Shown piece by piece: positions 8,351 through 64,000 of a stretch of DNA of 64,000 bases (positions are counted from its first letter, which is position 1; each line of letters begins with the position of its first letter). A program made the position numbers and the translations under genes. The notes under the pieces were generated by a model that saw only the letters and a program-made list of their open reading frames with translations, did not search any database and was not told the origin of the DNA. This stretch comes from Candidatus Omnitrophota bacterium. GTDB lineage: Bacteria > Omnitrophota > Gorgyraeia > B26-G9. The DNA lies in contig JAHITY010000062.1 in the NCBI GenBank assembly GCA_018817165.1, forward strand, positions 26,958 to 90,957, given 5' to 3'.

Positions 8351-8351
8351 T

Positions 8352-9704: not shown

Positions 9705-9711
9705 TCTAACC

Positions 9712-10570: not shown

Positions 10571-10589
10571 TTAGTGCGATAAAATCTAA

Positions 10590-10631: not shown

Positions 10632-10730
10632 TCAGGTTATTGTTGAGATTGAAAAGAATATTTGTTATAATAAAAAAAAGTTATAATGTTTGTCTCTAAT
10701 TAATTTGGTTAATTAGTTGAAAGGCTTGCG

Positions 10731-11279: not shown

Positions 11280-11327
11280 TTATGATGAATTGAAATAAAT
11301 TGTAAATTTGCAAAAGAAAGCATTTTT

Positions 11328-13416: not shown

Positions 13417-13452
13417 GATGCTAAAAACCTTTTTGTTTAAAATGGGAGAGTA

Positions 13453-15123: not shown

Positions 15124-15132
15124 GGGAAAATA

Positions 15133-15726
15133 ATGAAAAAAGAACTTTCTAAAAAAGATCAGACATTAATCGCGGGAATTATTGGAATTTTTATTCTAGT
15201 GGTTCTGTCTTTTGTGACCGTATTCCAGCCTTTAATTACAAAAATTTTAAATTATAATAAACAGGAAAAGACAATGAGTGAACAGTTGGCTAAAGTTGAA
15301 AGCATGTCAGCTGATAAAGAAAAACTATCAAGGGAATTAGAAATTATTACTAAGAAAATAGATTATTATGAAAAAAAATTACCGCAACAGACTGATATCC
15401 CGGAAATACTCGCGGAATTGATTAAAATAGGCGAAAAAAGCAATGTTACATTTATTATGATTGAGCCGCAGAACACAAAGCAGATAGCTGTGGGAGATTC
15501 TCAGAATAAAACATATTTAGAAATCCCCATAGAAATTAAGCTCAAGGCAGGGTATCATCAGTTCGCGGCTTTTGTTAATGGTGTGGAAAATTTTCAAAGA
15601 TTCATGAAAGTGGATAATATAAAGATTACTTCTAAAGATGACAGCGCTGAGAAATTACATGAGGCGAGTTTAACGGTTAGCGCATTTGCTATAGAAAGAA
15701 AAAATACTGATGAAAAAACAAATTAA
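15133..15726 (+). CDS. pilO: PilO-like inner-membrane pilus alignment protein
   Basis: N-terminal TM, coiled-coil and a small periplasmic domain; position between pilMN and pilP. Confidence 0.6.
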   Translation: MKKELSKKDQTLIAGIIGIFILVVLSFVTVFQPLITKILNYNKQEKTMSEQLAKVESMSADKEKLSRELEIITKKIDYYEKKLPQQTDIPEILAELIKIGEKSNVTFIMIEPQNTKQIAVGDSQNKTYLEIPIEIKLKAGYHQFAAFVNGVENFQRFMKVDNIKITSKDDSAEKLHEASLTVSAFAIERKNTDEKTN

Positions 15727-16150
15727 ATCGAAAGTAATTTTATTAGTGATATTAATAATCATTATTAATTCAATGGCTTTAGGGCTTAATGCATTGTTAA
15801 CTGATGCTTTTGCGCAACAACCTATAGTAAGTGATGAATCAACGGAGGTATTTGTTTATACTCGGAATGAAAGACCTGATCCGTTTGTTAGTTTAATAAA
15901 TAAAAGCGGAGATTTTAAAGATAATGTTCCCAGCGCAAGAGAAGAAATGATGGATTTAGTTCAACTGATTAAAGTTGATGGAATCCTTTGGGATTCTCAA
16001 ATGCCCTTGGTAATGATCAATAAAGAAATTCATAAAATCGGTGATATAGTCAATAGGCTGACTGTTAAAGAAATTACTGCTGAATCAGTTACTTTTGCGT
16101 ATTCAGATTTAACGTATACAATTACTATTATAGAAAAGAAATATTTTTGA
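15710..16150 (+). CDS. pilP: PilP-like protein
   Basis: Signal-anchor N-terminus plus a small beta domain; overlaps pilO and the pilQ start (ATGA); position in the operon. Confidence 0.5.
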   Translation: MKKQIKSKVILLVILIIIINSMALGLNALLTDAFAQQPIVSDESTEVFVYTRNERPDPFVSLINKSGDFKDNVPSAREEMMDLVQLIKVDGILWDSQMPLVMINKEIHKIGDIVNRLTVKEITAESVTFAYSDLTYTITIIEKKYF

Positions 16151-48516: not shown

Positions 48517-51500
48517 ATGAAATTTTTTAATAAAAAATCAATTCAATTAAAAATTATTGCTTTGCTATTATTAAATAGCTTTTCTGGAATTAATAGCAGC
48601 AATGCTTTTGACTTTAAAATAGAGCATAATTCTCAGCAACATTGTCTTGCTCCTGTGCTCCAGCTTGACAACTCAATCTTTTCTAAGCTTCTTATTGATT
48701 ATAATCGTGAAGTATTAAGTATCCTGCATACCATGAAGTATGCGCCTCAGCTTGCCCTAGGTAATGACCGGGTGATCGGGGCTGCCATACAAAAAAATTC
48801 AAACCAAGAAGATCCCGAATACTGGCTGATGCTTTCTCATCGCGGTTCTCCCATGGCTGCGGATATTAATTTTCTCCCAGACAATCTTGAGCAAAAAGGT
48901 AATGGTCTAGGCGTATTTAATCCTGATCAAGATGATTATGTTTATGAGCTTGTCGAATTTTTTGATAATAATCAATCGGATATTAATTCAATTATTAATC
49001 CCAAACGCATGTTGGTAACCGGGCGTTCTTTGCGGGTATTGGGAATGGGTTTTTATCAGCCTTTGCCGATTTCAGTAACAAAGATATACAAATTTAGAAA
49101 AGTAGCCGCGCAAATTCCTAGTCAAGATAAAGCTGATTATAATGTATTGTTAAAATACTCATTATTAAATTATAAACGGTTTGCTCCCCAATACCGGATG
49201 GAGAACAGTTTTATCGCTAGAGAAATAATTAAAGCACTTAATGCCGGCAGTGTTGAATTTACGGGATTATTTTACGCTTTATCTGAAATGATTGATGACG
49301 ATCAGAAAATTGACTTTAGTGAATTAAGCCGCATATTTAGTGATATTATTTTTTATGGTGATCAGCAGTTAAAAGATAATGCCCAAAAAATTTTGATTGA
49401 TATTGCGATTGCTGGGCAAATCAAAGAAATTTCAGTCCATGGTTTAGCCAAAGCTTCAATTGTTGGCGCGCGTTCTAGTGAAAACGCGATTAAGCTCTTA
49501 CGCAGTTCGACTGTGGGTGAAATAGTGCTTACTTCTCCGGAAAGTTTATGGAGTACTGGAACAGGAGGAATGGCTTTGTATGTTTCTGATCTGGCCAAAG
49601 AACTCGCGGCCTTGGGAATCCCGGTCACTGTTATTGTCCCATTGTTTAATGAACCTATTCGAAAAAAAGAGATTTTTCAATCATATAATTTGCATGATAC
49701 AGGCCGAGGGATAAATTTAAACTTCGGTAGGGCGGGGGATGAAACCGCGCATGCAAAAATTTACGAAGCTAATCAGGAGGGGGTAAGAATATTATATTTG
49801 GAGAATGATAAGTATTTTAATCTGCTAAAAGGTTCTGATGGCGGAGATAATGCTTACAATGGATCAGTTAGTTTTCGCTTGCGGTTTGCCCGGATGCTTT
49901 CCTTAGGAACTTTGTTGGCAATCCGGGAAATGAATATTCATCCTCGAATTATTCAGACCAATGATTGGACAACTGCTTACTTAAAAGCTTATTTAGAAGG
50001 CAGAGAGCGGATTGATCCAAGTCTTGAAGGCTTACGCTTTGATCCTCATTTGCAGTCAACAAAAGTTTTAAGCATATTGCATAATTCACATGCTTATTAT
50101 CAAGGGAATATGTGGGTTCCTGATTTAGCGCAGAGAGATAAGCACATTTGGGATGATCTGGGATTTAATCCGGAAAAAGACACGGATATTCTTGTTTTGG
50201 GCCATGATCATACCCAGCATGATCATAATCCTGTTTTAAGAGCCAGAGCGTGGCTGGATATTAATCCGACTTATACTGCGGTCAGAACAGGAGATAATAT
50301 TATAGATGTAAGTGAAGGTCATCGAGATCGAAGTATTAATCCTGTTTATGCTCCGGAATTCGGATATCTTGATGGCGTTTTGGGCTGGAAAGCGAGTATT
50401 GGCGATTTTTATGGCCAGGCTAATGGTTTTGGCTTAGCGCAAAGGCAGCGCGATTTTTTAAGTAAAATGCTGATTGCTAATAAAGAATCCAAAGTATCAA
50501 TTAAAGACATGGCTGTTAATATTAGCAAAAAGAATTCCCAGAGTAAAATTGAAGAGGGGTATATTAATTGGCTGTCAAATCCTGAATCAATGTTGAGAGG
50601 TTTTTATGGCATTAGCTCAGACCAGGAAAAATCATGGCTGAATAAGTTGTGCAATGATTTAAAACCGCAAGACAAATCAATGGCTGAATTTAAGTTGGAG
50701 ATGCGCAAGCTTTTAGAAGCAGAATTGCTGCAAAAAACCACAAAGCTACTGCGTTCAAATATCTATATTGCTTTAGAAGATAAAAATTATTTTAAACATG
50801 ACTTGGAATATAGAAAAATGCTTCAGGATTTTCTTGATAAACCAGAACAGTCGATCAAGAGTTTTTTTGATATAGGCCATGAATCAGAGCGGAGGAGATT
50901 GGCAAATTTTCATTTTGAGTTTATCAAACCTTTACAAAAATCAATATTGCAGAATATTTTTGGCATAGAAAAAGATGAACAAAAATTTACTTATTCCATG
51001 CTTCACCGTGTTGGAGAACAAAAAGGGCATCAATTATTAACTGCAGAAATCTGGAATAGCCATAATCCCGGATCGCTTAAGGCTATAAAGGGAACAATTT
51101 TCTATGATAAGATTGAGAGTCATGATTATGAAATAGGCTTAAGTCTGGAAGATCAAAATAAATTATCTGATTTTGCCAATAAACATAATTTGATTAATTT
51201 GCGGGCCATGGAAGTGGCAATGATTTTAAATCATGATGTGCAATTTGTTATAGTTGGCTCAGCTGATGGTGATTTAGATAAAGCCTTTCAGGAAACATAT
51301 AAAATATTTAAACATACAAAACAATTTGCTTATTTGCCGGAATTTATCTCCATTAACAGTGCTTTGTATGATTTGATTTATTCAGGCTCAGATCGTTTTG
51401 GCATGCCTTCTTGGTATGAACCAGGCGGATTATCTAATCAAGAAGCGGCAGGATATGGTACCCCGCGGCATCTTACTCGGAGAGACGGATTACTTGACGG

Positions 51501-52161
51501 AGAAATAAAAGTTGAGGGTTTAAGAGAAAGTTTTGAGGAATTTAATCCTGTTGCTTGGCTTGTGTCCTTGCAGGAGCATAGTAAGTTTTTTAAAGAAAAT
51601 AAATCCGAGGAAAGAGAACTGCGTTATCAGGCGATAACTCAGGATAATCGCTGGCTGAACCGGGCGAGAAATTATGTTGAGCTTTACCGCAAACTTGCCG
51701 GCGCGGAAAGAATCCCGGAATTAAAATCCTTGGTAATGACTGCGGCAATTCATCAGGCGGCGATTCGCGCAGATAATGATCCGGCTGATGAAATTATGCG
51801 CAATGGATATACTGCTGAAGAAACAGTAGATAATCTGATTAATGTTGTTAAATCTTCATCAAATAATGTTTTGGTTTCGGCATTAATTGAAAAATATATC
51901 CCTTATTTAGCTAAAATTTTAGAAATCAGACAAACTTTAATTAATCGCATAGATGTGATTGTTGAAGAGTGTAGAATTAATGGTGATAGTGGAATTTTAT
52001 GCCAAAGATTTGAAATGCTTAGAGATAATATTATTCAATTAAATAAAATAACAGCTAAGGAAATTATGCCATACGCGAATGTGGATTTAGCTACTTTAAA
52101 ATTAAAGCAAAAAGAATATATCCTCAGTTTAAAATTTAGCTTTGTTGATCAGGCGATTTAG
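48517..52161 (+). CDS. Very large glycogen/starch-synthase-like (GT5) glycosyltransferase with N- and C-terminal extensions and internal insertions
   Basis: GT5 N-half motifs STGTGGMALYVSDLAKELAALGIPVTVIVP and IIQTNDWTTAYL (cf. KTGGLADV / HxHDWxTAL). GT5 C-half FVIVGSADGDL...IYSGSDRFGMPSWYEPGGLSNQEAAGYGTPRHLTRRDGLLD. 1214 aa, versus about 480 for GlgA. Confidence 0.6.
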   Translation: MKFFNKKSIQLKIIALLLLNSFSGINSSNAFDFKIEHNSQQHCLAPVLQLDNSIFSKLLIDYNREVLSILHTMKYAPQLALGNDRVIGAAIQKNSNQEDPEYWLMLSHRGSPMAADINFLPDNLEQKGNGLGVFNPDQDDYVYELVEFFDNNQSDINSIINPKRMLVTGRSLRVLGMGFYQPLPISVTKIYKFRKVAAQIPSQDKADYNVLLKYSLLNYKRFAPQYRMENSFIAREIIKALNAGSVEFTGLFYALSEMIDDDQKIDFSELSRIFSDIIFYGDQQLKDNAQKILIDIAIAGQIKEISVHGLAKASIVGARSSENAIKLLRSSTVGEIVLTSPESLWSTGTGGMALYVSDLAKELAALGIPVTVIVPLFNEPIRKKEIFQSYNLHDTGRGINLNFGRAGDETAHAKIYEANQEGVRILYLENDKYFNLLKGSDGGDNAYNGSVSFRLRFARMLSLGTLLAIREMNIHPRIIQTNDWTTAYLKAYLEGRERIDPSLEGLRFDPHLQSTKVLSILHNSHAYYQGNMWVPDLAQRDKHIWDDLGFNPEKDTDILVLGHDHTQHDHNPVLRARAWLDINPTYTAVRTGDNIIDVSEGHRDRSINPVYAPEFGYLDGVLGWKASIGDFYGQANGFGLAQRQRDFLSKMLIANKESKVSIKDMAVNISKKNSQSKIEEGYINWLSNPESMLRGFYGISSDQEKSWLNKLCNDLKPQDKSMAEFKLEMRKLLEAELLQKTTKLLRSNIYIALEDKNYFKHDLEYRKMLQDFLDKPEQSIKSFFDIGHESERRRLANFHFEFIKPLQKSILQNIFGIEKDEQKFTYSMLHRVGEQKGHQLLTAEIWNSHNPGSLKAIKGTIFYDKIESHDYEIGLSLEDQNKLSDFANKHNLINLRAMEVAMILNHDVQFVIVGSADGDLDKAFQETYKIFKHTKQFAYLPEFISINSALYDLIYSGSDRFGMPSWYEPGGLSNQEAAGYGTPRHLTRRDGLLDGEIKVEGLRESFEEFNPVAWLVSLQEHSKFFKENKSEERELRYQAITQDNRWLNRARNYVELYRKLAGAERIPELKSLVMTAAIHQAAIRADNDPADEIMRNGYTAEETVDNLINVVKSSSNNVLVSALIEKYIPYLAKILEIRQTLINRIDVIVEECRINGDSGILCQRFEMLRDNIIQLNKITAKEIMPYANVDLATLKLKQKEYILSLKFSFVDQAI

Positions 52162-52344: not shown

Positions 52345-52674
52345 ATGCAAATATCAAAATTGTTTATAAGTATTATAATATCTATCTTTTGTTTGTTTTT
52401 GGTAATCTCCTCTTCTTACTGCCAAGAGGCAGTGCATACTGTTAGTGGTAATGTATCTAGTCTTAGCAGTGCCGGTCAGTTATTGTCGATTAATTATACT
52501 GATCAAACAAATTCTATTCAAAATGTCCAGCTTGTTATTGGAGAAGATACCGAATTTTTTGACCTGCCGGATATTTACTCCTTACACATAGGTGATGATA
52601 TTACAGTTGATTATATTATAGATGAGCAGGGTGATAATCAGGCTGTTTCTCTATATAAATTTGCAGCAAAATAA
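52345..52674 (+). CDS. Small secreted hypothetical protein
   Basis: Signal peptide followed by an ~85-aa acidic beta-rich domain. Confidence 0.4.
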   Translation: MQISKLFISIIISIFCLFLVISSSYCQEAVHTVSGNVSSLSSAGQLLSINYTDQTNSIQNVQLVIGEDTEFFDLPDIYSLHIGDDITVDYIIDEQGDNQAVSLYKFAAK

Positions 52675-52708
52675 GTTGTTTTGTGAAAAGTTAAACATCG
52701 GAGATACT

Positions 52709-53767
52709 TTGAGAATCACTAGTTGTTTACTGGTTATATTAGCTTGTATATCCTTTTTTGCCCCTTGTGCTGTTTTTGCGGCTGACCTAGCAGGTACTGC
52801 TAGTCTTAGTGGCTATGTAAAAGATTCAGTAACTGGGCAGCCGATTTTTGATGCGAGAATAAGCCTTAAGTGCGGGCCGGACAAGTTAAAAACAACCAGC
52901 AATTTTCAAGGTTATTATCAGTTTTCCGAGATTTTAATATACAGTAAAAATGGTGATTTGCTGGAATTCGCAGAAATAAAAATCTCCGCGCAGCAATACA
53001 TTTCAATAATAGATTTCAAAGATTTGCTTCCGGATCAATCATATACAATGGATTTTAATCTACATACCCGGTTTACCTATCCGATTGTAAGAGGTAAGGT
53101 TTTTGATACTTCCACATTATCCGGTATTCCTGAAGCAGTCGTAACTGCCAATAGTGATAATAACGTATTTACCACGGTTGCTGATTTAAATGGTAATTAT
53201 GTCCTGCGCATTGAATCTAAAAACCCTCAAGAATATTCAATTATTGCCAAAGCCGATGAATATTATGAAAGTTCACCTCAAATTATCAAAGTTTTTCCTT
53301 ATGATACATATAATATAGATTTCCCCCTTGATATTATGGCCTTGGGTGTCAGTGTGTCTCCGGACAGTTGGCAGATTGGCAGCATTGGACCTAATTCAGT
53401 AGCCACCATGCAGCTAGGGCAGCAAATTACTGTTACAAATACAGGTAATGATAATTTGACTTATAGTTTGATGTTAATAAGTCCAGAAGGCTGGACAGCT
53501 TCACAAACAGCTGTGGCAGCAGAACAATATATTCTTAATGTCTGCTTTTCATCAGAAATAGAAACAATATCATGGAATGATGAAAATCATTCTCTTCTTG
53601 AAATATTGCAACGCTGCTCAGAAATAAAATTTGCTGGTGATCAGAATGGCGTAGATATTATCCCCGGACAACAAAGAACTCTTTGGATGCAGTTTAAAGC
53701 ACCGCTTTCAACAATAATAGAAAATGAACAGGTAATTGAAGTTATCATTAATGCAGAAATGCCATAA
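52709..53767 (+). CDS. Secreted protein with two carboxypeptidase-regulatory-like (transthyretin-like) domains
   Basis: Probable TTG start at 52709 (GGAG RBS), giving signal peptide MRITSCLLVILACISFFAPCAVFA. Motifs GYVKDSVTGQPIFDARISL and GKVFDTSTLSGIPEAVVTA. The track's 52622 start would overlap the upstream gene. Confidence 0.45.
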   Translation: MRITSCLLVILACISFFAPCAVFAADLAGTASLSGYVKDSVTGQPIFDARISLKCGPDKLKTTSNFQGYYQFSEILIYSKNGDLLEFAEIKISAQQYISIIDFKDLLPDQSYTMDFNLHTRFTYPIVRGKVFDTSTLSGIPEAVVTANSDNNVFTTVADLNGNYVLRIESKNPQEYSIIAKADEYYESSPQIIKVFPYDTYNIDFPLDIMALGVSVSPDSWQIGSIGPNSVATMQLGQQITVTNTGNDNLTYSLMLISPEGWTASQTAVAAEQYILNVCFSSEIETISWNDENHSLLEILQRCSEIKFAGDQNGVDIIPGQQRTLWMQFKAPLSTIIENEQVIEVIINAEMP

Positions 53768-53846
53768 TTCTTTATTACGCTCAATAGCGTTTACATAGAA
53801 AGTATATTTTTTATAACTGCCTTAGGGCAAAAACAAGGAGGAAGAA

Positions 53847-54323
53847 GTGAAAAAGGGTTTAATTTTGGCTTTAATATTAACATTTGCATTTTCAGGGGCT
53901 GCTTTTGCTGCTGAGAGCGCACAAATTGCGGTAACTGTAACTATAACTCAAAGCGTATCTGTTACTGTAAATCCAGGCAGCTATGCCTTTGGGGCAACTG
54001 ATGCTGGAGCAACTCTATCAACAGCTCCAGATACTTTTACCGCAACTAATGATGGAAATGGCGCTGAAAACTTAGTAATTACAGTTGCTAATACAACTAA
54101 CTGGATAGCTGGTTCAACAGTTGGAACTGATCAGTTTGCAATGAATGTTGATACTGGAAGCGGATGGACATTAATTGATCCAGCAACTGGTTCTTCATTG
54201 GCAGCAGGGGTAGTGGCTGCAGGTACTCAGGATTTTGGATTGCAGTTGCTTGTTCCTAGTGCAACAACTAATGCAGGTGCGGAACAGTCAATAGCAGTTA
54301 CTGTAACAGCTTCAGCTCAATAA
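53847..54323 (+). CDS. Secreted Thr/Ala/Gly-rich beta protein, candidate surface-fibre subunit (SCPU/fimbrial-like pattern, no Cys)
   Basis: GTG start with AAGGAGG RBS; signal peptide ...GAAFA|AE. Alternating-hydrophobic beta strands at both termini (AQIAVTVTITQSVSVTV...IAVTVTASAQ); followed by a perfect 10-bp hairpin. Confidence 0.45.
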   Translation: MKKGLILALILTFAFSGAAFAAESAQIAVTVTITQSVSVTVNPGSYAFGATDAGATLSTAPDTFTATNDGNGAENLVITVANTTNWIAGSTVGTDQFAMNVDTGSGWTLIDPATGSSLAAGVVAAGTQDFGLQLLVPSATTNAGAEQSIAVTVTASAQ

Positions 54324-54350
54324 TAAGTAATTAATAGAATAAAGGGTTTA

Positions 54351-54377
54351 GGTGAAGAGCTGATTTTGCTCTTCACC
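54351..54377 (+). other. Perfect 10-bp stem-loop after the candidate fibre-subunit gene
   Basis: GGTGAAGAGC-tgatttt-GCTCTTCACC; no T-tract, so likely a partial terminator or mRNA-stabilising hairpin. Confidence 0.5.
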
Positions 54378-54408
54378 TGGGCTACTTTAAAAACGAGAAA
54401 GTTAGTCT

Positions 54409-54870
54409 ATGCTGAATTTAAAAAAATATCTTATTGCACTTATAATTATCTTAAATTTATTTATTACTCTCCCGGCCTTTGCCGGAGGACTTTCCTCGAA
54501 TTGGGGAGAAGTTCATATTGATAATCTTGAGGTCGGCAAGTCATATGATTTAAATGACTTTTTGAACACTACTTTTAAAATCATGAATAATTTTGACAAA
54601 GTTATTCTTTTAAATATTTCTATTGTAAAACCTGAATTATCAGAGTTAAAGCCTGGTTATTTAGTGATTGAAGATACTTCTTGGGTACAGGTAAAAAATG
54701 AAGTTATTATTCCGGCACAGTCACAGGGAGTTGTTCCCATAAATATTAGTATCCCTGATTCAGATGAGTATAAAGGTAAGAAATATCAGTTTTGGATATG
54801 GACCCGCACATCTGGTCAGGCAGTTGGCGTGGGATTGAAAAGTCGGATATTGATTAGTATTGTTAATTAG
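54409..54870 (+). CDS. Small secreted hypothetical beta-sandwich protein
   Basis: Signal peptide ...LPAFA|GG; 153 aa; no recognisable motif. Confidence 0.4.
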   Translation: MLNLKKYLIALIIILNLFITLPAFAGGLSSNWGEVHIDNLEVGKSYDLNDFLNTTFKIMNNFDKVILLNISIVKPELSELKPGYLVIEDTSWVQVKNEVIIPAQSQGVVPINISIPDSDEYKGKKYQFWIWTRTSGQAVGVGLKSRILISIVN

Positions 54871-54898
54871 AATTAATTTAGACAAAATTTATAATTAT

Positions 54899-57800
54899 AT
54901 GATAAAAAAACGCTTTTTAAAAATTATCGTAGGCATTCTTTTCATTACCGGTATGGTTGGCTCAGCTTATGCCCAGCCATTTGCTACTATTTTATTAAGC
55001 GTAACAGTAACTGATACCACAGCGCCATTAGCTCCTACAGGACTTACTGCTGTAGATGGTGATGGGATAATTAATCTTAACTGGAGTGCCAATCAAGAAG
55101 GAGATCTTGCTGGATATAATCTTTATAGATCTCTTACTTCAGAAAGTGGATACAGTAAATTAAATTCAGGATTGATCACAACAATATCTTATCAAGATAC
55201 AGGGCTTATAAATGGTAATATCTATTACTATAAAATAACCGCAGTAGATGCAAGTAATAATGAAAGTCTTTATTCCGGAGAAATAAGCGTCAGTCTTGAG
55301 CTTTTAGTTACGGATGAAGTTGAACCTAATGATAGTTTTGCCCAGGCAAATAATCTGGGGATTAATTCACTGATGAATGGAGCCATTGCTGATTTAGGAG
55401 ATATTGATTATTACCGGTTTACAGTTGATTCCCCCGGAATTTTAAATGTATCCTTAACAAATGTCCCGGCTAATATTAATGCCGCTGTCGTGATCTATGA
55501 TTCTATTTATTCAATGAAGACTTCCCAGGGCGCAGGTTATGGCTCAGATATAGTTATAAATTATGAGGTTGCTTCTTCGGGGGTATATTATGTGAGCATT
55601 TTTGATAGTGGTAATGATGGAATATCAGCTTCTTTGTATGATCTTAAGGTTACACATATTCCTGGACTTGATGTATATGAGCCAAACCCTGATTTTGCTC
55701 AAGCGACGAATATAAATTCTGGCGATGATATTCAGGCAACGATTTTTCCTGTAAGTGATAATGACTATTATAAGATTACCTCAAATAGTGTTAGCATGAT
55801 GCATGTTCACCTCACTAATGTTCCCAATAATATTAATGCTTATTTAACAGTTTATGATTCTAATTTTATTACAAAATCTGCGAAGGCTGGCATTAACGGT
55901 GCAGATATTGACTTAGAACTTGAGACAAAAGAAAATGAAGAATATTTTATTAGAGTATACGATACTACAAATGACAGTAGTTCTCTATTATTATATAATC
56001 TTCAGGCAATTGTTACCCTTGGACTGGATGCATATGAGCCTAATAATGATTTTGATAATGCTGCCGTAGTAAATCTAAATGAGCCTATCCAGGCAAATAT
56101 ATTTGGTATGGGTGATAATGACTACTATAAGGTTTCGGTAACAGAGCCGGGAGTGTTTACGGTCGCTTTATCTAATGTACCTGCAAATATAAGGCCGTAT
56201 GTTTATGCTTACAGAGCTGATCAAAGTTATTTGATGTCTAAGATGGGGCAAACAGGTGATAATCTTGAATTTAATTTTGAAGTTTCAGCGACCGGAGATT
56301 ATTATATAAGGGTTTATGATTCGTTAAACTATTTGGTTTCAACTGAGACATATGATTTACTAATTTCGCAGACACCGATTTCTCTGGATAATGTTGTCGA
56401 TACCCCAGATGCATTTAGTCCTAATGGAGATAATAATGCTGATATTAATACTATAACTTATTATCTAACAAAGAACGGGCTTGTTACAATAAAAATTTAT
56501 GATGCTCAGGATGCGCTTGTTAGAGTATTAAAAAACGAGCAAGCAGAAAATTACGGGACAAGGACTGCTGTTTGGGATGGAAAAAATGATACAGGGAATA
56601 TTCTCGCGGACGGGATTTATAAATATATTATTGAAGCCGTGGATTTGCAGGGCAATCCTGCTTTATCACATCAAAGTACAATTACCATTGAAAATAATTT
56701 TCTGGTCATTGTCGAACCATCAAGTCCGATTGCCGGACAGGTAACTTTTAGAGCTGTGCCTTCGCAAAATATTACTACTGTGCGCCAAGTGCGTTTTCGC
56801 TATAACCTTAAAGGCTCAATTTCTTCTTATGATGTAGATCCAGTCAATATTCTTGCCCAGGAGCAGGCTGATAGCAGCTGGACAGTATCATGGGATACAA
56901 CTAAAGTAAAGAACGGTGAGTATGAGATATCTGTTGGCGCGGCTTATTATGATTTAAATGGGATCCAGCGATATGAGACTTTGCCGCCAGTGAATTATAT
57001 AATATCTAATATTATTGTAATTAATAATCTTTCTGTTAGCTCAAATGCGTTTAGTCCTAATGGAGATAATTATAATGAAATTACAAATATAAATTATCTG
57101 ATCACCAAAGACGCGAATGTAACTATTAATATTTATGATGATCAGGGAACACTTGTGCGTGCGCTGATAACTGCCCAAGCAAAACTTGCTGGAGATAATT
57201 TGGAAATTTGGGATGGCAAGGATAATGATGCTGTGCTGCTGGATGAAGGTGTTTATACTTGTATTGTGACTGCCACTGAGAATTGGGGCGACGCAAGTCC
57301 TAAACAAATAGATATTGTTATTGATAATCATGCAATGACAATTACTGAACCTGTTGAGGGAAATATTTTATCAGGTGAAGTTAGCATTACAACAGTACCT
57401 TCTATATATGCTAATGCTTATTCTGTTTACTTGGAGTGCAAAGCAAAAAATGATCTTTGGTGGACAATGATCAATAATGCGGTAAAACAGCCTGATGCCA
57501 GCTGGATAAGCACATGGGATACAGCAGCTTTGCCCAGTGGGGAGTATGAACTCAGAGTGTGTGTTGCGTATCGGGATTTAAATAATCTAGGTAGGAGCGA
57601 ATTCTCCGCGCCGATTACTTGTTCAGTATCTAACAGTTTTGCAATATTAAGTTTCTCAGATCGGCCTGACGCGTTCAGCCCAAATAATGATTATAATGCT
57701 GATGTAACAATAATAAATTATTTAATTACTGCTGATGCTCAGGTAAGCCTGAAAATATTTGATCAAAATAATCTGCTAATTAGAACCCTTAAAGACAATG

Positions 57801-59815
57801 TTCAGGAATTAGCTGGTAGCATAAATACTGAATGGGATGGTAAAGATGATCTTGGAGTCCTGGTTCCCGAGGGAGAGTATACCTATATCTTAGATGCCAT
57901 GGATGCCCAGAATAATGCTGTTCAGAAACAGGGAACAATAACAGTTGATAATCATTTTCTAACGATTACAATTCCTGCTAGCGGAACTACATTAAGTGAT
58001 ACAGTAGTTTTGCAAGGAGTTCCTTCTGCAAATACAACTGTAACTTCAGGACAATTTCGCTATCGAATCTATAATGTCAATTATTGGATAAATATAGGTG
58101 CATGGGTAAAACAATCGGATGGAAGTATAACTGGTAGTTGGGATACCACAGTAATAGAAAACAACGATTATGAGGTGCAGGCTTATGTTAATTATATAGA
58201 TAAGGACGGATTGGCTAGAAGTGAATATACGATTCCTGTACTTTATACGGTAGATAATATTGCGGTGCTTAGTTGCTCTACGTGGCCTGTAATAATTTCA
58301 CCGAACGCTGATTCTGTAAAAGATACTACGACACTTATTGCTAATTTATCAGATGTATTTGATTGGATAATTACTATAAAGGATTCTTTGAATGTAGAAG
58401 TTAAGAGTTTTTCAGGTAATGGCAAGACTATATCATTGGACTGGGATGGAAAAGATACTAGTGATAGCATTGTTGCGGATGGAGTGTATACTTGTTATGT
58501 TCAAGCAATAGATCCCGATACTGGTTTGCCTGTTTCCACAAAATCCTGCGCAATTGAAATTGATAATACTCCAGCGCAGGCTGTTATTACATTTCCGGTA
58601 GCGGACAGTATTGTTTCTGGTAATTTGGATATAATAGGTACAGTTAATGATATTAATTTTAAATCAGCAGTGCTTCAGTATGGAGAAGGCAGCAATCCTT
58701 TGACATGGGTGGATATTGTTTCTATAAATACTGTGGTTATTGCTAATAAATTAGGCGAGATTGATACTGGTACTTTACCTAATGGGATTATAACTTTTAA
58801 AATTGTTGGAGAAGATAATGCCGGCAATATTAGCGAAGGCTCAGTCCAGGTTACTACTGATAATGTGAAGATTACAAATGTTTCTGCTAACCCAAGGACT
58901 ATTGATCCTGCTGTGTCAGAAAGCACATCAATTAATTTTAGTCTTGACCGCGATGCAAATGTAACGATAAGAATTTACAAAGCTGAAAATCCGTATGACT
59001 ATAATTATATTGTAACTTCATATGTAAAAACATATGTTTTTACTCCTGTTGATAATATACCTTATTCCTCCGGGCAACATGCATTTGTTTGGGACGGCAG
59101 AGATGGAAATGGCGAGTTGCTTCCAGTAGGTACCTATGTTTTTACTATGGAAGCTACCGCAGCAGGCGCAGGAGATGGCTATTATGATCCAGAGTATGTA
59201 GATGGTGATTCATTGATAGATAATACAGGTTTTAGTTTAATTTTTAATCCTTATAAAAATGAAAATTGTTTGATCGATTATGATATTGTATCACCTGCAT
59301 GGCTAACAATAATGACATTTTCCAGCGATGGACAGACTGTGCGAAAATTGGTTCGTTGGGAATTTCGTGATGCCGGAAGCTATACTGAATACTGGGATGG
59401 GCGTACATATGATGGTAATGTTGTTAGCGTGGGGTCATATAATATTCGAGGTTATACAAAACAGATGCCTGAGAACTACATTATTATTAAAAATTCTCCA
59501 ATTTCTGTCACCTCCTTGGAAACAGAAGCATATCTGATTTTACCTTTGTATGATCAGGTCAGCACAATTAAATACGCAATATCGCGTGATGCTTTTGTAA
59601 CCATAAAACTGTATGATCCTAATGGAAGTTATTATTGTACTTTAGAAGAAGGATCCATACTAAAACAAGGCGGTAACTATTCTGTGGAGTGGAATGGAAC
59701 TAATGATGATGGGAAATATATAAATGTTTCCGGTGATTATAGGGTTGAGATTACTTTAACTGATGCCGAGGGTGTGAGCATTGTGCGTAACGGTAATATA
59801 GTTGTTTATAAATAG
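54899..59815 (+). CDS. Giant surface protein: Fn3 domain, four pre-peptidase C-terminal (PPC) domains, then about six FlgD-Ig-like repeats alternating with Ig-like modules
   Basis: Signal peptide MIKKRFLKIIVGILFITGMVGSAYA. PPC signatures EPNDSFAQAN...GDIDYYRF occur four times. FlgD-Ig signatures DAFSPNGDNNADI...IKIYD...VWDGKNDTGNILADGIY are repeated. The track start at 54860 overlaps the previous gene. Confidence 0.7.
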   Translation: MIKKRFLKIIVGILFITGMVGSAYAQPFATILLSVTVTDTTAPLAPTGLTAVDGDGIINLNWSANQEGDLAGYNLYRSLTSESGYSKLNSGLITTISYQDTGLINGNIYYYKITAVDASNNESLYSGEISVSLELLVTDEVEPNDSFAQANNLGINSLMNGAIADLGDIDYYRFTVDSPGILNVSLTNVPANINAAVVIYDSIYSMKTSQGAGYGSDIVINYEVASSGVYYVSIFDSGNDGISASLYDLKVTHIPGLDVYEPNPDFAQATNINSGDDIQATIFPVSDNDYYKITSNSVSMMHVHLTNVPNNINAYLTVYDSNFITKSAKAGINGADIDLELETKENEEYFIRVYDTTNDSSSLLLYNLQAIVTLGLDAYEPNNDFDNAAVVNLNEPIQANIFGMGDNDYYKVSVTEPGVFTVALSNVPANIRPYVYAYRADQSYLMSKMGQTGDNLEFNFEVSATGDYYIRVYDSLNYLVSTETYDLLISQTPISLDNVVDTPDAFSPNGDNNADINTITYYLTKNGLVTIKIYDAQDALVRVLKNEQAENYGTRTAVWDGKNDTGNILADGIYKYIIEAVDLQGNPALSHQSTITIENNFLVIVEPSSPIAGQVTFRAVPSQNITTVRQVRFRYNLKGSISSYDVDPVNILAQEQADSSWTVSWDTTKVKNGEYEISVGAAYYDLNGIQRYETLPPVNYIISNIIVINNLSVSSNAFSPNGDNYNEITNINYLITKDANVTINIYDDQGTLVRALITAQAKLAGDNLEIWDGKDNDAVLLDEGVYTCIVTATENWGDASPKQIDIVIDNHAMTITEPVEGNILSGEVSITTVPSIYANAYSVYLECKAKNDLWWTMINNAVKQPDASWISTWDTAALPSGEYELRVCVAYRDLNNLGRSEFSAPITCSVSNSFAILSFSDRPDAFSPNNDYNADVTIINYLITADAQVSLKIFDQNNLLIRTLKDNVQELAGSINTEWDGKDDLGVLVPEGEYTYILDAMDAQNNAVQKQGTITVDNHFLTITIPASGTTLSDTVVLQGVPSANTTVTSGQFRYRIYNVNYWINIGAWVKQSDGSITGSWDTTVIENNDYEVQAYVNYIDKDGLARSEYTIPVLYTVDNIAVLSCSTWPVIISPNADSVKDTTTLIANLSDVFDWIITIKDSLNVEVKSFSGNGKTISLDWDGKDTSDSIVADGVYTCYVQAIDPDTGLPVSTKSCAIEIDNTPAQAVITFPVADSIVSGNLDIIGTVNDINFKSAVLQYGEGSNPLTWVDIVSINTVVIANKLGEIDTGTLPNGIITFKIVGEDNAGNISEGSVQVTTDNVKITNVSANPRTIDPAVSESTSINFSLDRDANVTIRIYKAENPYDYNYIVTSYVKTYVFTPVDNIPYSSGQHAFVWDGRDGNGELLPVGTYVFTMEATAAGAGDGYYDPEYVDGDSLIDNTGFSLIFNPYKNENCLIDYDIVSPAWLTIMTFSSDGQTVRKLVRWEFRDAGSYTEYWDGRTYDGNVVSVGSYNIRGYTKQMPENYIIIKNSPISVTSLETEAYLILPLYDQVSTIKYAISRDAFVTIKLYDPNGSYYCTLEEGSILKQGGNYSVEWNGTNDDGKYINVSGDYRVEITLTDAEGVSIVRNGNIVVYK

Positions 59816-59828
59816 GGTTTTGATTTAT

Positions 59829-60695
59829 ATGAAAAAGAAAATAATAATATTCCTTGGCTTATTTTTTATTGTAACAAATGCTTTTGCTCAAGGTTTAGAG
59901 AATAAGATTATATATTCCAGATTTACCAATGGGTATTGGCAGATTTGGAGTTATTCTTTAGATTTAAACCAGCATGAGCAATTAACAAAATCAGCATATG
60001 ATAAACGCAATCCTATTTGTATAGATATTAAGGGAAAGATAATTTTCCGTTCAAGCAATGCTAATATGTATTTACTGGATACAAATACTGCTAAAGAAGA
60101 ACAGATTTTAAAAGATCTGGGGAGAATTGCCTATCCTGCCTGGTCAGAGCAAAATAATTCACTGGCTTTTACAAGATATGATGATACATTAACTGATGAA
60201 AGTGAACTTTGGACAGTGGCTTTAGACGGCACAGGACAAAGAGTTCTGACTAATTTACCGGGCATGCAGTATGACGCTTCCTGGTCAAATGACGGCAAAC
60301 ATATCTTATATTCAGCGCTTGAGTCTTATGGCAAACATCATATCTGGATTATGGATATTGACGGCAAGAATAGTAAACAGCTTACTTCTAATGACAAAGC
60401 GTATGATTTATCCGCAGTGTTTTCACCAGATGATAAAACTATTGCTTTTGCTTCAAATCAAACTGGAAATTTTGAAATATGGCTAATGGATAATAATGGA
60501 AAAAACCTTAAAAATATCACAAACAACAATGCGTTTGACGCAAAACCAACATTTTCTCCTGATGCAAAACAAATAGCTTTTGTTTCATCAAGAAGCAATA
60601 GTTTACAGATCTGGATTATGAATACTGATGGATCAAATCCTGTCATGATAAGTGACGGTAAAGAAGAGGCGCAGGATCCTTTTTGGGTGAAATAG
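59829..60695 (+). CDS. TolB-like periplasmic beta-propeller protein (PD40 repeats)
   Basis: Signal peptide, then repeated FSPDGK/WSNDGK-type PD40 motifs; no N-terminal TolB domain. Confidence 0.6.
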   Translation: MKKKIIIFLGLFFIVTNAFAQGLENKIIYSRFTNGYWQIWSYSLDLNQHEQLTKSAYDKRNPICIDIKGKIIFRSSNANMYLLDTNTAKEEQILKDLGRIAYPAWSEQNNSLAFTRYDDTLTDESELWTVALDGTGQRVLTNLPGMQYDASWSNDGKHILYSALESYGKHHIWIMDIDGKNSKQLTSNDKAYDLSAVFSPDDKTIAFASNQTGNFEIWLMDNNGKNLKNITNNNAFDAKPTFSPDAKQIAFVSSRSNSLQIWIMNTDGSNPVMISDGKEEAQDPFWVK

Positions 60696-60708: not shown

Positions 60709-61854
60709 ATGTTAAGACAAATAAACAAAATAAACGCAATACTTTTTATTATATTGGGACTACTTTTATTTAGTCTGGTTAATTATTCTTATGCGGATAG
60801 TCAAAAGTTTCAAACAGCTCAAGCAGGAAAAAATTCAGCTAAAAAAAAATTAAAACTATTAATAACCAATGTTTCTTTAGATAAAAAAGCAATCAATCCT
60901 GTAAAGAATGAAGCAGCTAGCATAAGATTCCGGCTTAATAAAAAAGCGCAAATAAGCGCGAAAATATATAATTCTCTTGACCAGCTTGTCAGGGAAATTA
61001 AATCGCGGGATATGTGTAAATCTGGTTATAATGAAATTATCTGGGATGGTAAAGACAAAGACGGGCAAATTGTTATCCCGGATGCTTATGTTTACACCTT
61101 AACTGGTTATGATCAAAAAAATAATGAATTAATGGTCTTTGATCCGGCTGATGAAACCGGGGGGTTAACTCTTGCGATAAGAGAATTCGCTACGGATAGT
61201 ACAAGGGGCCAGATTACTTATGTATTGCCCAAAGCTGCTAGAGTAAGAATTCGCATTGGCTTAAAAAATGGGGGGCCTTTATTACGCACGCTTATTGATT
61301 TTAAACCACAGCCAGCAGGCAGAAATAATCTGATCTGGGATGGCTTTGACAGTTCTCATGTTTTTAATTTTCTGGGCAATGAAAATCTGTTTATAAATAT
61401 ATCGGCTTTTAGTTTGGCGGAAAACAGTATTATTGTTGATTATTCGCAACCAATTATTTCTAATGAAACTAAAAACTATTCAGACGCGGAAATGAGGATT
61501 AAGAAAGAAACTGATTTGCCAAAAGATATGCATGCTTTGCATGAAAGAGATAAATGTCATGAGCCTGATTTTGGATTTCAAGTCATGTATGAAAACAAGA
61601 AGGATGATATTATTCCTATAAAAATCAGACTTTCAGATAAAGATAAAATTGAATTGATTGGCACTCGTTATGAAATTGTATTTTTTTTGGATAATGTTTT
61701 TATTTTTGAAGAAGAAGAAGGAATATCTCCGCTTACTTATCAATTTGATACTAAAGGGATTAATTCAGGCAAGCATTTATTGACTATAAATCTTCATGGT
61801 TTTGATAATCATGTGGCAACCAGGTCTGAGGAAATTATTATAAAGAGGGAATAA
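60709..61854 (+). CDS. Secreted protein with FlgD-Ig-like domain
   Basis: Signal peptide; ASIRFRLNKKAQISAKIYNSLDQLVREIK...IWDGKDKDGQIVIPDAYVY. Confidence 0.5.
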   Translation: MLRQINKINAILFIILGLLLFSLVNYSYADSQKFQTAQAGKNSAKKKLKLLITNVSLDKKAINPVKNEAASIRFRLNKKAQISAKIYNSLDQLVREIKSRDMCKSGYNEIIWDGKDKDGQIVIPDAYVYTLTGYDQKNNELMVFDPADETGGLTLAIREFATDSTRGQITYVLPKAARVRIRIGLKNGGPLLRTLIDFKPQPAGRNNLIWDGFDSSHVFNFLGNENLFINISAFSLAENSIIVDYSQPIISNETKNYSDAEMRIKKETDLPKDMHALHERDKCHEPDFGFQVMYENKKDDIIPIKIRLSDKDKIELIGTRYEIVFFLDNVFIFEEEEGISPLTYQFDTKGINSGKHLLTINLHGFDNHVATRSEEIIIKRE

Positions 61855-64000
61855 TGAAAAGATTAAAAAAACTAATCGCAAGTTTATTAATAATCCTGTT
61901 TATATTGCAAACAAGTGGTATTCAAACTTTGCGTGCTGATTGCTGGAATGGAAGCGGGGATAGTTTTGGCGTTGTAGAAGCTATTGTGGATGTAATGATG
62001 CATTATGCAGGAGCTAAGAACTCCAATGAAAATGCTAATGAAAGTGAGGGGATTGATCCTGTTTATTTGAATAGCGGTGAATACAATTATTCTCAGCAGG
62101 ATTTATTTATTCCAAGCCGTGCTATGCCTATTGAAATAAAGCGCTATTATAAAAGCCAAAAAGATGTTAATGGAGTTTTAGGCTTTGGCTGGTTTTTAAG
62201 CTGTAATATCAGGTTAAAGCGTTTAATAAATAATAATATTGTAGTTATTCAGGGTGATGGCAGAAAAGATGAATATCTTAGAGATTATGTAAATGATCAA
62301 TATATTCCGCCTGCGGGAATTTATTCAGACTTGGTACAGAACCAAGACGGCACAGTTACGCTCACAGAGAAAAACGGTAAAAAATACAAATTTGATATTA
62401 ACGGCAATCTGGCAACAATAATTGATCGCAATAATAATAGTATGAGTTTTAGCTATTCTGCTTTAAAAGAACCGATTGTCGGCAAATCACCTTATTTTGT
62501 TAATCAAGTGCAGGGTTTGCTGGGCTATGAATATAAACTGCAGAAAATAACTGATACTGTTGGCAGGGATATAGATTTTACTTATAATTCTAATGGTCGG
62601 CTTGAGAAAATAAAAGATTTTACCGGCAGGGAAATAATCTACAGTTTTGACAGCAATGATGATTTGGCTTCAGTACAGGATCCAATGGGTAATCTTGTTC
62701 ATTATACTTATGATACAAACCATAATCTTTTGACGATTAAAGATAAAAAAGACCAGACCTATGTAACCAATGAATATAATGCTTCAGATAAACTTATAAC
62801 CCAGAATTACGGTGGTTATACCAGTACAGTTAACTATGATGAAGAAAACAGTATTACCACAGTTACTGACCGCAGAGGCTACACAACTGTTTCCACCTTT
62901 GATGATGCGGGAAATCCAATAAAGAAGGAAGTATTTACTGATAATGTGCGGACTGGTGATCCTGCATCCTATGTAACTCAAACAGAATATAATCCTGATA
63001 AAGAAGTAACAAAGATTATATATCCAAAAGGCAATTCTCTTAGCAAAGAATACGATGCAAAGGGTAATGTTTTAAAAATCATAAGAAGTCCTGTTGCTGG
63101 ATCAAGTGAGCCGGATATTGTAACCGAGTTTACATATGATTCGGTGTTTAATTTTATTAAGACAGTAAAAGACCCTTTAGGACGAATTACAATATATGAC
63201 TATGATAATGATGGCAATATTATAACCATAACTTATCCTGAAGTTGATTCTCAAATACCGGAAGTGACATTTACCTATAATCAATACGGACAGCTGGAAA
63301 CCAAAACCGATCAAAACGGAGTAATTACCAAATTTGAATATTATCCTGCTACAGGATATTTGCATAAAACAATCACGGATTTTGGAGATATTACCCATAA
63401 TAATGTCACAACGGAATTCACATATGATGATAGAGGAAATATATTAACAGTAACTGATGCCAAGGGTAATATAACAACAATGGAGTATGATGTTTTAAAC
63501 AGACTGACTAAAACCATATCGCCTGCACCGTTTAATTATCAGACTAAATATACATATGATGAAAATGATAATCTGATCAAGCTGGAAAGACAAAAAGACG
63601 CAGCTGCAACCCAGTGGCAGCTAACAGAATATGAATACGATAATCTTGATCAATTAGTTCTAACCAAACAATATCTAACAGATGTAGATATTTATACAAC
63701 TGCTTTTGAATATGACGGAAGTCAAAACAGAACTAAAATCATTGATGCGGAAAATAAACAAACAAACTATGTTTACGATGAACGCGGACTATTGTATACA
63801 GTTACAGATGCTGAAAATAATATTACCACTTACAGCTATGATGCTAATGGTAATTTAAAAGAGATTATGGATGCAAAGACCAATACGACAGACTATGAAT
63901 ATGATGATTTCAACAGGGTTTTAAAGACAATATATCCTGATACTTCTTATGAAGAATTTACTTATGATGCTAATTCAAATCTAAAAACCAAACGCACCAG
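61854..64000 (+). CDS. RHS/YD-repeat protein, N-terminal ~715 aa (continues beyond window end)
   Basis: ATG at 61854 overlaps the upstream stop (TAATG). Signal peptide, then more than 10 YD repeats (YTYDTNHNLLTI, FTYNQYGQLETKTD, YTYDENDNLIKLE, YVYDERGLLYTVTD, YSYDANGNLKEI, FTYDANSNLKTK). The frame is open to base 64000. Confidence 0.8.
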   Translation, partial: MKRLKKLIASLLIILFILQTSGIQTLRADCWNGSGDSFGVVEAIVDVMMHYAGAKNSNENANESEGIDPVYLNSGEYNYSQQDLFIPSRAMPIEIKRYYKSQKDVNGVLGFGWFLSCNIRLKRLINNNIVVIQGDGRKDEYLRDYVNDQYIPPAGIYSDLVQNQDGTVTLTEKNGKKYKFDINGNLATIIDRNNNSMSFSYSALKEPIVGKSPYFVNQVQGLLGYEYKLQKITDTVGRDIDFTYNSNGRLEKIKDFTGREIIYSFDSNDDLASVQDPMGNLVHYTYDTNHNLLTIKDKKDQTYVTNEYNASDKLITQNYGGYTSTVNYDEENSITTVTDRRGYTTVSTFDDAGNPIKKEVFTDNVRTGDPASYVTQTEYNPDKEVTKIIYPKGNSLSKEYDAKGNVLKIIRSPVAGSSEPDIVTEFTYDSVFNFIKTVKDPLGRITIYDYDNDGNIITITYPEVDSQIPEVTFTYNQYGQLETKTDQNGVITKFEYYPATGYLHKTITDFGDITHNNVTTEFTYDDRGNILTVTDAKGNITTMEYDVLNRLTKTISPAPFNYQTKYTYDENDNLIKLERQKDAAATQWQLTEYEYDNLDQLVLTKQYLTDVDIYTTAFEYDGSQNRTKIIDAENKQTNYVYDERGLLYTVTDAENNITTYSYDANGNLKEIMDAKTNTTDYEYDDFNRVLKTIYPDTSYEEFTYDANSNLKTKRT

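Follow-up and report, generated by a model that had tools for sequence, protein, structure and literature searches.

The closest described counterparts of the system reported here are TasA-type fibres, in which a second protein could start or anchor the fibre (TapA/AbpB; PMC9245690); the CryoSeek fibrils TLP-1a and TLP-1b, which are of unknown origin and assemble by N-terminal donor-strand exchange (PMC11494351); chaperone-usher pili; and the WxL gene clusters, which combine a small WxL protein, a large WxL protein and WxLIP, a DUF916-DUF3324-transmembrane protein (PMC9772566, PMC10599100), the WxL domain itself carrying two motifs 68-106 residues apart (PMC9772566). Here we examine a protein, S, encoded in a 64,000-nucleotide stretch of a Candidatus Omnitrophota bacterium genome (GenBank assembly GCA_018817165.1, contig JAHITY010000062.1, positions 26,958 to 90,957 of the forward strand), together with the products of its two flanking genes, L and P. 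This whole stretch is called the window below, and its own numbering is used throughout. With moderate confidence, we favour the reading that S is the short, strand-donating subunit of a surface assembly encoded by L, S and P, a fibre with a tip, a shaft and a chaperone or anchor that is assembled without an usher. The features on which this reading draws are as follows.

52709-53767, + strand: L gene, the long subunit, a candidate tip protein; made up of a signal peptide, a pair of CarboxypepD_reg-like domains and, at the C-terminus, an S-like domain that lacks the donor-type strand
53835-53841, + strand: Shine-Dalgarno sequence of S, AAGGAGG, 5 nt before the GTG; read from the sequence
53847-54323, + strand: S open reading frame (ORF), GTG start, 158 aa, secreted; confirmed from the ORF list and the sequence
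53847-53909, + strand: S signal peptide, aa 1-21, cleavage after AFA; read from the sequence, its position conserved in alignment A1
53919-53951, + strand: N-terminal extension of S, AQIAVTVTITQ (aa 25-35), proposed donor strand; unpaired in the AlphaFold2 (AF2) model, conserved, and found in short forms only
53952-54323, + strand: beta-sandwich core of S, aa 36-158 and stop, with the TATNDGN motif, W86, P137 and the terminal strand VTVTASAQ; from AF2 (pLDDT, the predicted local distance difference test score, 94-97), Foldseek and invariant columns
54344-54384, + strand: stem-loop between S and P; perfect 11-bp stem (54350-54360 with 54368-54378) and 7-nt loop, extending to about 16 pairs
54409-54870, + strand: P gene, 153-aa secreted single-domain PapD-like/ASH immunoglobulin (Ig) protein, the conserved partner of S; from AF2, Foldseek and synteny

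The S protein, its family and its predicted fold

S is identical to hypothetical protein KJ915_05595 of a Candidatus Omnitrophica metagenome-assembled genome (MAG). Its signal peptide, MKKGLILALILTFAFSGAAFA, is followed by AE and ends in an AxA-type Sec site (AFA/AE) as read from the sequence, leaving a mature protein of 137 aa (13.4 kDa, pI about 4.05) rich in Ala (17.5%), Thr (16.8%), Gly (10.2%), Val (10.2%) and Ser (8.8%), with no Cys, Lys, Arg or His. The absence of these four residues fits an exposed, protease-resistant structural protein. An earlier reading of the DNA made without database searches (the sequence-only reading) had described a 158-aa secreted protein, Thr/Ala/Gly-rich and Cys-free, with a strong ribosome-binding site (RBS) and alternating beta strands at both ends. 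All of this holds: the computed composition adds the lack of Lys, Arg and His, AAGGAGG stands 5 nt from the GTG, and the two ends do show the alternating strands, AQIAVTVTITQSVSVTV at aa 25-41 and IAVTVTASAQ at aa 149-158, which are among the best-conserved parts of the family.

That family is large and almost without annotation. A word-indexed search returned 35 relatives, 155-182 aa long and devoid of Pfam domains, and an exhaustive profile search of 1.84 billion cluster representatives (clusters at 50% identity) found 2,634 representatives at E <= 1e-3 and 1,200 at E <= 1e-10. A second profile search added 365 further relatives, for which the taxon labels are lineages of the Candidate Phyla Radiation (CPR; WWE3, Roizmanbacteria, Saccharimonadales) and the source name, where one is given, is 'hypothetical protein', with a single 'ComGC' that is evidently spurious. 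The family is at present covered by no Pfam or NCBIfam model, and nearly all of its source-named members carry the same uninformative name.

Conservation is not confined to the core. T30, V31 and T32 of the N-terminal strand are near-invariant, and the other conserved features are G49, the TATNDGN motif (N68, G70), W86, P137 and the C-terminal VTVxA strand with which the protein ends. Among 108 short representatives, information per position is 2.48 bits in the N-terminal strand and 2.72 bits in the C-terminal strand, against 2.14 bits in the core. The family averages 3.2% Lys, Arg and His combined and is acidic overall. Exactly two Cys residues, in an inserted loop (e.g. FCNTGTGTPDPCD), occur in 48 of these 108 short subunits, and 43 have none; the Omnitrophota group of S proteins, that of the window included, is without the inserted loop and Cys-free.

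Scanned with hmmscan at E <= 1, S and 149 relatives gave no informative Pfam or NCBIfam family match, with the models for SCPU (PF05229), Fimbrial (PF00419), TasA (PF12389), WxL (PF13731), DUF916 and DUF4402 all unmatched. S gave sub-threshold chance matches alone (OspI-like at 18.8 bits, ExtJ and choice_anchor_T), and the weak Pfam similarities among its relatives are to NEW3 and Ig-type domains. Searches of PDB sequences with the S profiles A1 and A4 returned no pilin, TasA, AbpA or CanX match, and a search with profile A3 returned nothing meaningful. The sequence-only reading had likened S to SCPU or chaperone-usher pilins, a likeness that finds no counterpart at the level of sequence in the Pfam, NCBIfam and PDB searches of S and its 149 relatives. 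A WxL domain, suggested by the WTL motifs of S, was ruled out by model match (none to PF13731) and by motif spacing.

From the alignment of 35 sequences, AF2 gave a beta-sandwich with a mean predicted local distance difference test score (pLDDT) of 89.3 and a predicted template modelling score of 0.73. A helix at residues 3-17 corresponds to the signal peptide, and from residue 39 the core is all-beta, and block-mean pLDDT is 91-97 from position 41 onwards. No strand is assigned to residues 18-38, where the conserved N-terminal strand lies and pLDDT is 65-81. In Foldseek searches of the PDB this model matched, in rank order, the TasA fibre 8aur (the best match, at E 7e-4 and a query-normalised template modelling (TM) score of 0.49), TLP-1b, the Hyper2 cannula-like tube, AbpA 7ueg (the Pyrobaculum bundling pilin), Caf1 and TLP-1a; FimG, the Sulfolobus 0406 thread, Pyrodictium cannulae, Csu, CupB6, PapE/PapA and CfaB ranked lower. 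Matches to chaperone-usher pilins are weak (E 0.02-0.1, TM score 0.35-0.46). Subunits that polymerise by donor-strand complementation dominate the list. We take this likeness as one of fold and not of homology, because the scores are modest and beta-sandwiches attract many matches.

The unplaced N-terminal strand has precedents. A genuine donor strand is disordered in AF2 monomer models of TLP-1 (PMC11494351), and that of the cannulae is likewise left unstructured by AF2 in monomers (PMC12518558); the N-terminal strand of the predicted S monomer is left unstructured in the same way. On the incomplete fold for which a structure prediction had been suggested by the sequence-only reading, the model shows a conserved strand without a pairing partner, and the best fold matches, though weak, are nearly all to donor-strand subunits.

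Long forms, the PapD-like partner and the gene triad

To compare architectures, we re-aligned S and 148 representatives (149 sequences) to the hidden Markov model (HMM) of the family, and two forms were found. Short forms (111 of 149, up to 215 aa) match the HMM from the signal peptide on (median start 4), and in all of those displayed an xVxATVTVxQ strand directly precedes the first core strand (VSVSVxDG). Long forms (38 of 149, 228-954 aa) carry the domain last in the protein, a median of 1 residue from the C-terminus, and their match begins at a median HMM position of 31, the conserved N-terminal strand being absent from all but P0043, which is a mis-called short gene. What precedes the domain varies: subtilase S8, Gly_rich_2, fn3 or lectin-like domains, or no known domain. 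In the 891-aa P0131, for example, a subtilase S8 domain stands ahead of the shared C-terminal domain. Several CPR-type long forms, among them P0050, P0054 and P0060, have in common a conserved N-terminal motif after a hydrophobic segment (e.g. GWIFSGRPQIWQNPSIPPRVKEAKA), which looks like a dedicated processing or sorting signal.

The gene directly upstream of S in the window encodes one such long form. L matches Pfam CarboxypepD_reg at 5.6e-15, and its residues 227-379 align to A1 with hhalign at 93% probability (E 3e-7). It also matches the L protein of a divergent Omnitrophota locus, L004, by BLASTP at E 8e-33, and that protein matches the A1 HMM at 5e-17. The mechanically called ORF of L starts at an ATG at 52622 (381 aa, 52622-53767) and overlaps the preceding 109-aa ORF by 53 nt. 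To judge from the sequence, the true start is likely the TTG at 52709, with a GGAGA RBS at 52700-52704 and a product of 352 aa; it is favoured because a normal signal peptide results and because this length fits the 353-aa orthologue of locus L001, the closest relative of the window locus.

P, downstream of S, was modelled by AF2 at pLDDT 92.3 as one Ig domain of about 125 aa in the mature protein. Foldseek returned 121 PDB matches for it at E <= 1e-3, led by the CEP192 ASH domain, the HYDIN PapD-like domain and the pilus chaperones FaeE, Caf1M, EcpB, FimC, SafB and DraB; the Enterococcus faecium WxLIP 9i1y_B is matched at E 1e-4. No informative family emerged for P from Pfam and NCBIfam scans, PapD_N and PapD_C being unmatched in Pfam, and neither the P of the window nor the CPR P proteins match DUF916 or DUF3324 in Pfam. 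The possibility that P is a diverged copy of S was ruled out, hhalign aligning the signal peptide only. P has 23 relatives, many of them on contigs shared with relatives of S, and conservation is very high at both ends of the mature protein (N-terminus GGLSSNWGEV, C-terminus GQAVGVGLKSRIL).

P comes in two forms. Outside Omnitrophota it is about 200-230 aa long, with a hydrophobic helix and then a basic tail at its C-terminus, whereas in Omnitrophota this helix is missing and the protein is soluble; the Omnitrophota P is homologous to the transmembrane-anchored P of CPR (hhalign 95.6%, E 1e-8). CPR bacteria are generally held to have no outer membrane. The organism studied here does have one, since a secretin (16147-17880) is encoded in the window. 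The membrane anchor of P therefore tracks envelope type, absent in diderm Omnitrophota and present in CPR.

The sequence-only reading had also stated that neither a chaperone nor an usher is encoded near S. The usher half of that statement stands: no Usher-family match was found among the scanned window proteins (neighbours and most larger ORFs) or in the Pfam annotations precomputed for genes called at related loci. The chaperone half does not, for the adjoining P has a PapD-like fold. Given that no usher was found, the accompanying suggestion that any assembly would use a different route is retained.

The arrangement L-S-P is widely conserved. Of the 34 loci examined, 8 were retrieved through exact matches to the protein and 26 by scanning GTDB species genomes with alignment A1, and in most of the 34 the three genes are adjacent, in that order and on the same strand. 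The few rearrangements are S-P with L following on the opposite strand (L003, L027) and S-L-P (L013, L028); in L006, L014 and L034 a contig end near the genes limits the view, and where contig ends intervene two adjacent members are seen. P adjoins S in nearly all loci that show enough of their surroundings, and most loci have one S gene. The triad is thus conserved across Omnitrophota and many CPR lineages, including Saccharibacteria, Daviesbacteria, Roizmanbacteria, Pacebacteria, Minisyncoccales, Staskawiczbacteria and other Patescibacteria. A handful of loci come from MAGs labelled otherwise, as Gammaproteobacteria (L012, L014, L022), an actinobacterium (L013) or a Bathyarchaeia archaeon (L026). 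In L012, L013, L022 and L026 the P gene is of the transmembrane-anchored form, and the contig of L014 ends before P. Such occurrences reflect either horizontal spread or mis-binned CPR contigs, and the bin labels may be unreliable.

Between S and P lies a strong stem-loop (-29.4 kcal/mol, z = -5.7; 0 of 200 shuffles fold as well). A hairpin had been noticed there before as a perfect 10-bp stem; the hairpin is confirmed and its perfect stem measures 11 bp. It matches no Rfam family. A canonical intrinsic terminator was considered and rejected: no U-tract follows, and a terminator scan made no call. All three divergent Omnitrophota loci (3 of 3) have a strong stem-loop at this position (z = -5.7 in the window, -6.0 in L001 and -5.0 in L004), formed by unrelated sequences, and it is because the position is kept without conservation of sequence that we argue for a function. 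We propose that it acts as an attenuator or as a 3' stabiliser of the mRNA, raising S over the downstream genes. In pilus operons such as pap, a stem-loop after the major-subunit gene gives an excess of that subunit. The strong RBS of S and the stem-loop after it would fit production of S in excess over the downstream genes.

The proposed assembly and its genomic surroundings

Taken together, several independent kinds of indirect evidence, namely the fold, the unpaired strand, the two architectures and the stem-loop at a constant position, support the core idea of the sequence-only reading, a donor-strand fibre subunit. In the assembly that we propose, Sec export and cleavage of the signal peptide would yield S as an acidic 13-kDa beta-sandwich with a free N-terminal strand of 10 residues. 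This strand would insert into the sandwich of a neighbouring S (donor-strand complementation), and polymerisation, to whatever length it proceeds, would give a thin head-to-tail fibre at what is presumably the cell surface. L, which has the acceptor domain but no donor strand, would for that reason be restricted to one end of the chain, proposed to be the distal tip, where it would present N-terminal domains that differ between loci (CarboxypepD_reg in the window, and elsewhere subtilase, Gly-rich, fn3 or lectin-like ones). P would cap the open groove of the newly exported or proximal S in the manner of a chaperone of the chaperone-usher pathway. In monoderm-like cells of the CPR type its transmembrane helix would, in addition, anchor the fibre at the membrane by its base, and no usher would be needed there because there is no outer membrane; in diderm Omnitrophota P would be soluble and presumably a periplasmic chaperone, and the fibre would have to cross the outer membrane. 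Owing to the stem-loop, S would stay more abundant than the products of the genes downstream.

Several observations weigh against this reading. Searches of Pfam, NCBIfam and PDB sequences found no sequence link from S to known pilin, TasA or WxL families. The fold matches of S are weak (best E 7e-4, TM scores of 0.35-0.5), and a beta-sandwich readily draws unrelated hits when folds are searched. P has one domain where the chaperones of chaperone-usher systems have two; in diderm Omnitrophota neither an usher nor another exit through the outer membrane was identified; and CPR-type loci have no such stem-loop between S and P. The residues just before the domain in L, moreover, often look beta-strand-like (e.g. 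ITYT), so that the strand position in L could be filled in cis and the strand would then be part of the fold and not a donor.

A defined complex without polymerisation, of the kind formed by WxL proteins, is the most serious alternative, because the grammar of the gene cluster is the same as in WxL loci, but we think it unlikely. One L, one S and one P would sit together on the envelope, possibly with a single strand insertion each, S serving as adaptor or stabiliser, P as tether and L as the presenter of binding or enzymatic domains. The gene content mirrors that of WxL clusters exactly (PMC9772566, PMC10599100), WxLIP 9i1y is among the fold matches of P, and most loci have a single S gene; in the WxL literature, AF2 places a hairpin of WxLIP beside the N-terminus of WxL with no polymerisation. 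Yet the best fold matches of S are polymerising subunits, and its strong RBS and, in Omnitrophota, the stem-loop that follows suggest an excess of S. A free donor strand and an acceptor domain in one small protein are, besides, the minimum for open-ended polymerisation.

S might also be a secreted or periplasmic beta-sandwich that works as a monomer, such as a binding module or a lectin-like protein of the envelope, its N-terminal strand belonging to its own fold or serving as a flexible linker and its association with L and P reflecting a shared surface function with no strand exchange. We judge this improbable. The fold-search scores are indeed modest, beta-sandwich domains with N-x-G turns are common in non-fibre proteins, and NEW3 and Ig-type domains are what the relatives of S weakly resemble in Pfam; but the N-terminal strand is as conserved as the core and still goes unplaced by AF2 and is missing from long forms, and a monomer leaves unexplained both the strict C-terminal position of the domain and its constant pairing with a PapD-like protein. 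Finally, that S is a genuine chaperone-usher or SCPU pilin with a classical usher elsewhere in the genome is very hard to credit: the general plan is the same, with a two-domain tip, a small subunit and a PapD-like protein, subunits of Caf1, Fim, Pap and Csu are among the fold matches, as are the corresponding chaperones, and the organism has an outer membrane, but S, P and the scanned window proteins match no SCPU, Fimbrial, PapD_N/C or Usher model, P is single-domain, and most family members are in CPR, with P membrane-anchored and, given what is generally held about their envelope, no outer membrane in which an usher could sit.

If the fibre reading is right, the L-S-P triad, widespread but unannotated in Omnitrophota and CPR/Patescibacteria, would have some bearing on how these organisms live. 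Both groups are ultra-small; the CPR members so far cultivated live on other cells as episymbionts, and traits that depend on a host have been reported in Omnitrophota. Attachment lies at the heart of such a way of life, and L-S-P, being compact and widespread and having swappable tip domains and a chaperone-like partner, is a concrete candidate for a second adhesion system beside type IV pili. Full-text literature searches found no description of such a module in CPR or Omnitrophota, and the Omnitrophota and Saccharibacteria literature found concerns type IV or Tad pili. The module is also a testable case of donor-strand assembly in which a chaperone-like protein is present but an usher is not, and bears on the origins of both chaperone-usher pili and WxL complexes. 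More speculatively, and with considerable doubt, L-S-P may be a previously unrecognised and ancient class of donor-strand pilus, in which the anchored single-domain PapD-like P is both chaperone and base anchor and makes an usher unnecessary. In that case it might be the main surface fibre other than type IV pili of CPR/Patescibacteria and Omnitrophota, with swappable tips for host contact (adhesins, proteases), and an evolutionary link between WxL/WxLIP complexes and the chaperones of chaperone-usher systems.

Beyond the triad, the window holds the following features.

54860-59815, + strand: 1651-aa multi-Ig giant (FlgD_ig x7, CHU_C-like, PPC; from Pfam), a lineage-specific accessory gene
59802-60695, + strand: PD40/TolB-like beta-propeller, accessory, common with the close relative L001 only
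60709-61854, + strand: FlgD_ig protein, accessory, common with the close relative L001 only
67-17880: type IV pilus/type II secretion system (T2SS)-like cluster, with T2SSE ATPase (67-945), T2SSF (1048-2256), PilM (13453-15123) and secretin (16147-17880)
2636-3106, 3110-3754, 10091-10570, 10731-11279 and 11328-11804: five N_methyl pilins of the same cluster

S had been placed among small secreted proteins and a giant adhesin, and small secreted proteins and a giant of 1651 aa with many Ig domains are indeed nearby, the giant lying outside the conserved core. It has a counterpart in L001; in L004 SpvB, TcdB and RHS genes are found instead, and the CPR loci have no counterpart of it. The giant, the propeller and the FlgD_ig protein were accordingly rejected as core parts of the system, since they are common to the closest relative L001 only. 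Directly after this cluster an RHS-repeat protein (DUF6531 and at least five RHS repeats; 61857-64000, + strand) runs off the end of the window, and in L004 genes for SpvB, TcdB_toxin_midN and RHS/YD-shell proteins follow the triad. The triad in Omnitrophota may be linked to toxin-delivery genes.

L004 further encodes a 132-aa secreted protein (11014-11412, + strand) whose signal peptide and first strand (AAQTATIVLTVTPNA) resemble the N-terminal extension of S and are followed by a different, Big_7-like Ig domain. Its match to the S HMM covers positions 1-46 at a domain E of about 4e-5 to 7e-5 and is weak and inflated by the signal peptide. A role as minor subunit or chain terminator is possible and, because a similar strand is carried on a different Ig domain, the N-terminal strand may be a transferable module. 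In L007, a locus of uncertain taxonomy with a transmembrane-anchored P, two further genes come after the triad (9199-10798, + strand), one for a protein whose C-terminus is dockerin-like/EF-hand (Dockerin_1, E 5.6e-4) and one for a membrane protein with a cohesin domain (E 1.7e-6), which hints at cohesin-dockerin attachment beside the fibre genes. Upstream of the triad in the window, a 1214-aa protein with a signal-like N-terminus (48517-52161, + strand) has a starch/glycogen-synthase core (Glyco_transf_5, aa 336-603) as its sole recognisable part, its large flanks being unannotated.

Interspersed in the type IV pilus/T2SS-like cluster are a histidine kinase and a sigma-54 response regulator (7064-9704), a GGDEF protein (12145-13416) and an unannotated 925-aa protein (3771-6548). 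A c-di-GMP-I riboswitch (RF01051; 2386-2549, + strand; 37.7 bits, gathering score 35) lies directly upstream of the type IV pilin gene at 2636-3106 and suggests that pilin expression is under c-di-GMP control in this Omnitrophota genome.

Comparison with described systems

The TLP-1a/b fibrils are the second and sixth fold matches of S (9ikk, 9ikj) and, like it, consist of an unannotated bacterial protein with a signal peptide. They differ in that the protomer has about 237 aa and is 9% identical to S, the assembly is a tubule in which strands are donated from n to n+4, and no genomic context is known.

Parallels are also found in the chaperone-usher pili, which likewise combine a two-domain tip adhesin without a donor strand in its C-terminal pilin domain, small donor-strand subunits and a partner of PapD fold. 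The fold matches of S to Caf1, FimG, PapA and Csu, and those of P to FaeE, Caf1M, EcpB, FimC, SafB and DraB, point the same way, as does the invariable position of the shared domain at the C-terminus. In contrast to these pili, no usher was found for L-S-P, P has one Ig domain and not two and is transmembrane-anchored in most lineages, and there is no membership by sequence. The S family, moreover, occurs mainly in CPR, which are generally regarded as lacking an outer membrane.

With the TasA, AbpA and CanX fibres, whose subunits are beta-sandwiches or jelly-rolls, S has in common that it is Sec-secreted and a small beta-sandwich, that the AF2 monomer leaves an N-terminal strand unstructured, and that no usher takes part; its fold matches 8aur (E 7e-4) and then 9bab, 7ueg, 9h8b and 7pnb. 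Like these fibres, L-S-P has a second protein besides the subunit. It nevertheless differs from the TasA superfamily in several respects. Neither S nor its 149 relatives match Peptidase_M73 (PF12389), mature S, at 137 aa, is much smaller than the chains it matches (7ueg, 7pnb and 8aur, of about 180-235 aa), no SipW-type signal peptidase adjoins S and no signal peptidase lies within about 6 kb, and the partner P is a PapD-like Ig domain and not TapA-like. The L form, with its C-terminal domain, has no described counterpart in TasA systems.

The WxL/Csc clusters of Lactobacillales offer an exact parallel in gene content: a small protein consisting of the domain only, a large one in which adhesin-type domains precede the domain and the latter is strictly C-terminal, and an Ig partner with a C-terminal transmembrane helix. 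Strand insertion near the N-terminus of the small protein is predicted there too. The differences lie in the proteins themselves and in where they occur. The conserved Trp residues of S, W86 and W107, are 21 residues apart and its C-terminus is VTVTASAQ; P has one Ig domain compared with two in WxLIP; there is no LPxTG partner; and the phyla are different. WxL proteins are, furthermore, thought to bind peptidoglycan and are not described as polymers. The organisation of a WxL cluster is thus found again in L-S-P, as a match of organisation and not of sequence. By the sequence and motif tests that define chaperone-usher pili, TasA-type fibres and WxL clusters, L-S-P belongs to none of the three, and it would work like the first two while being organised like the third.

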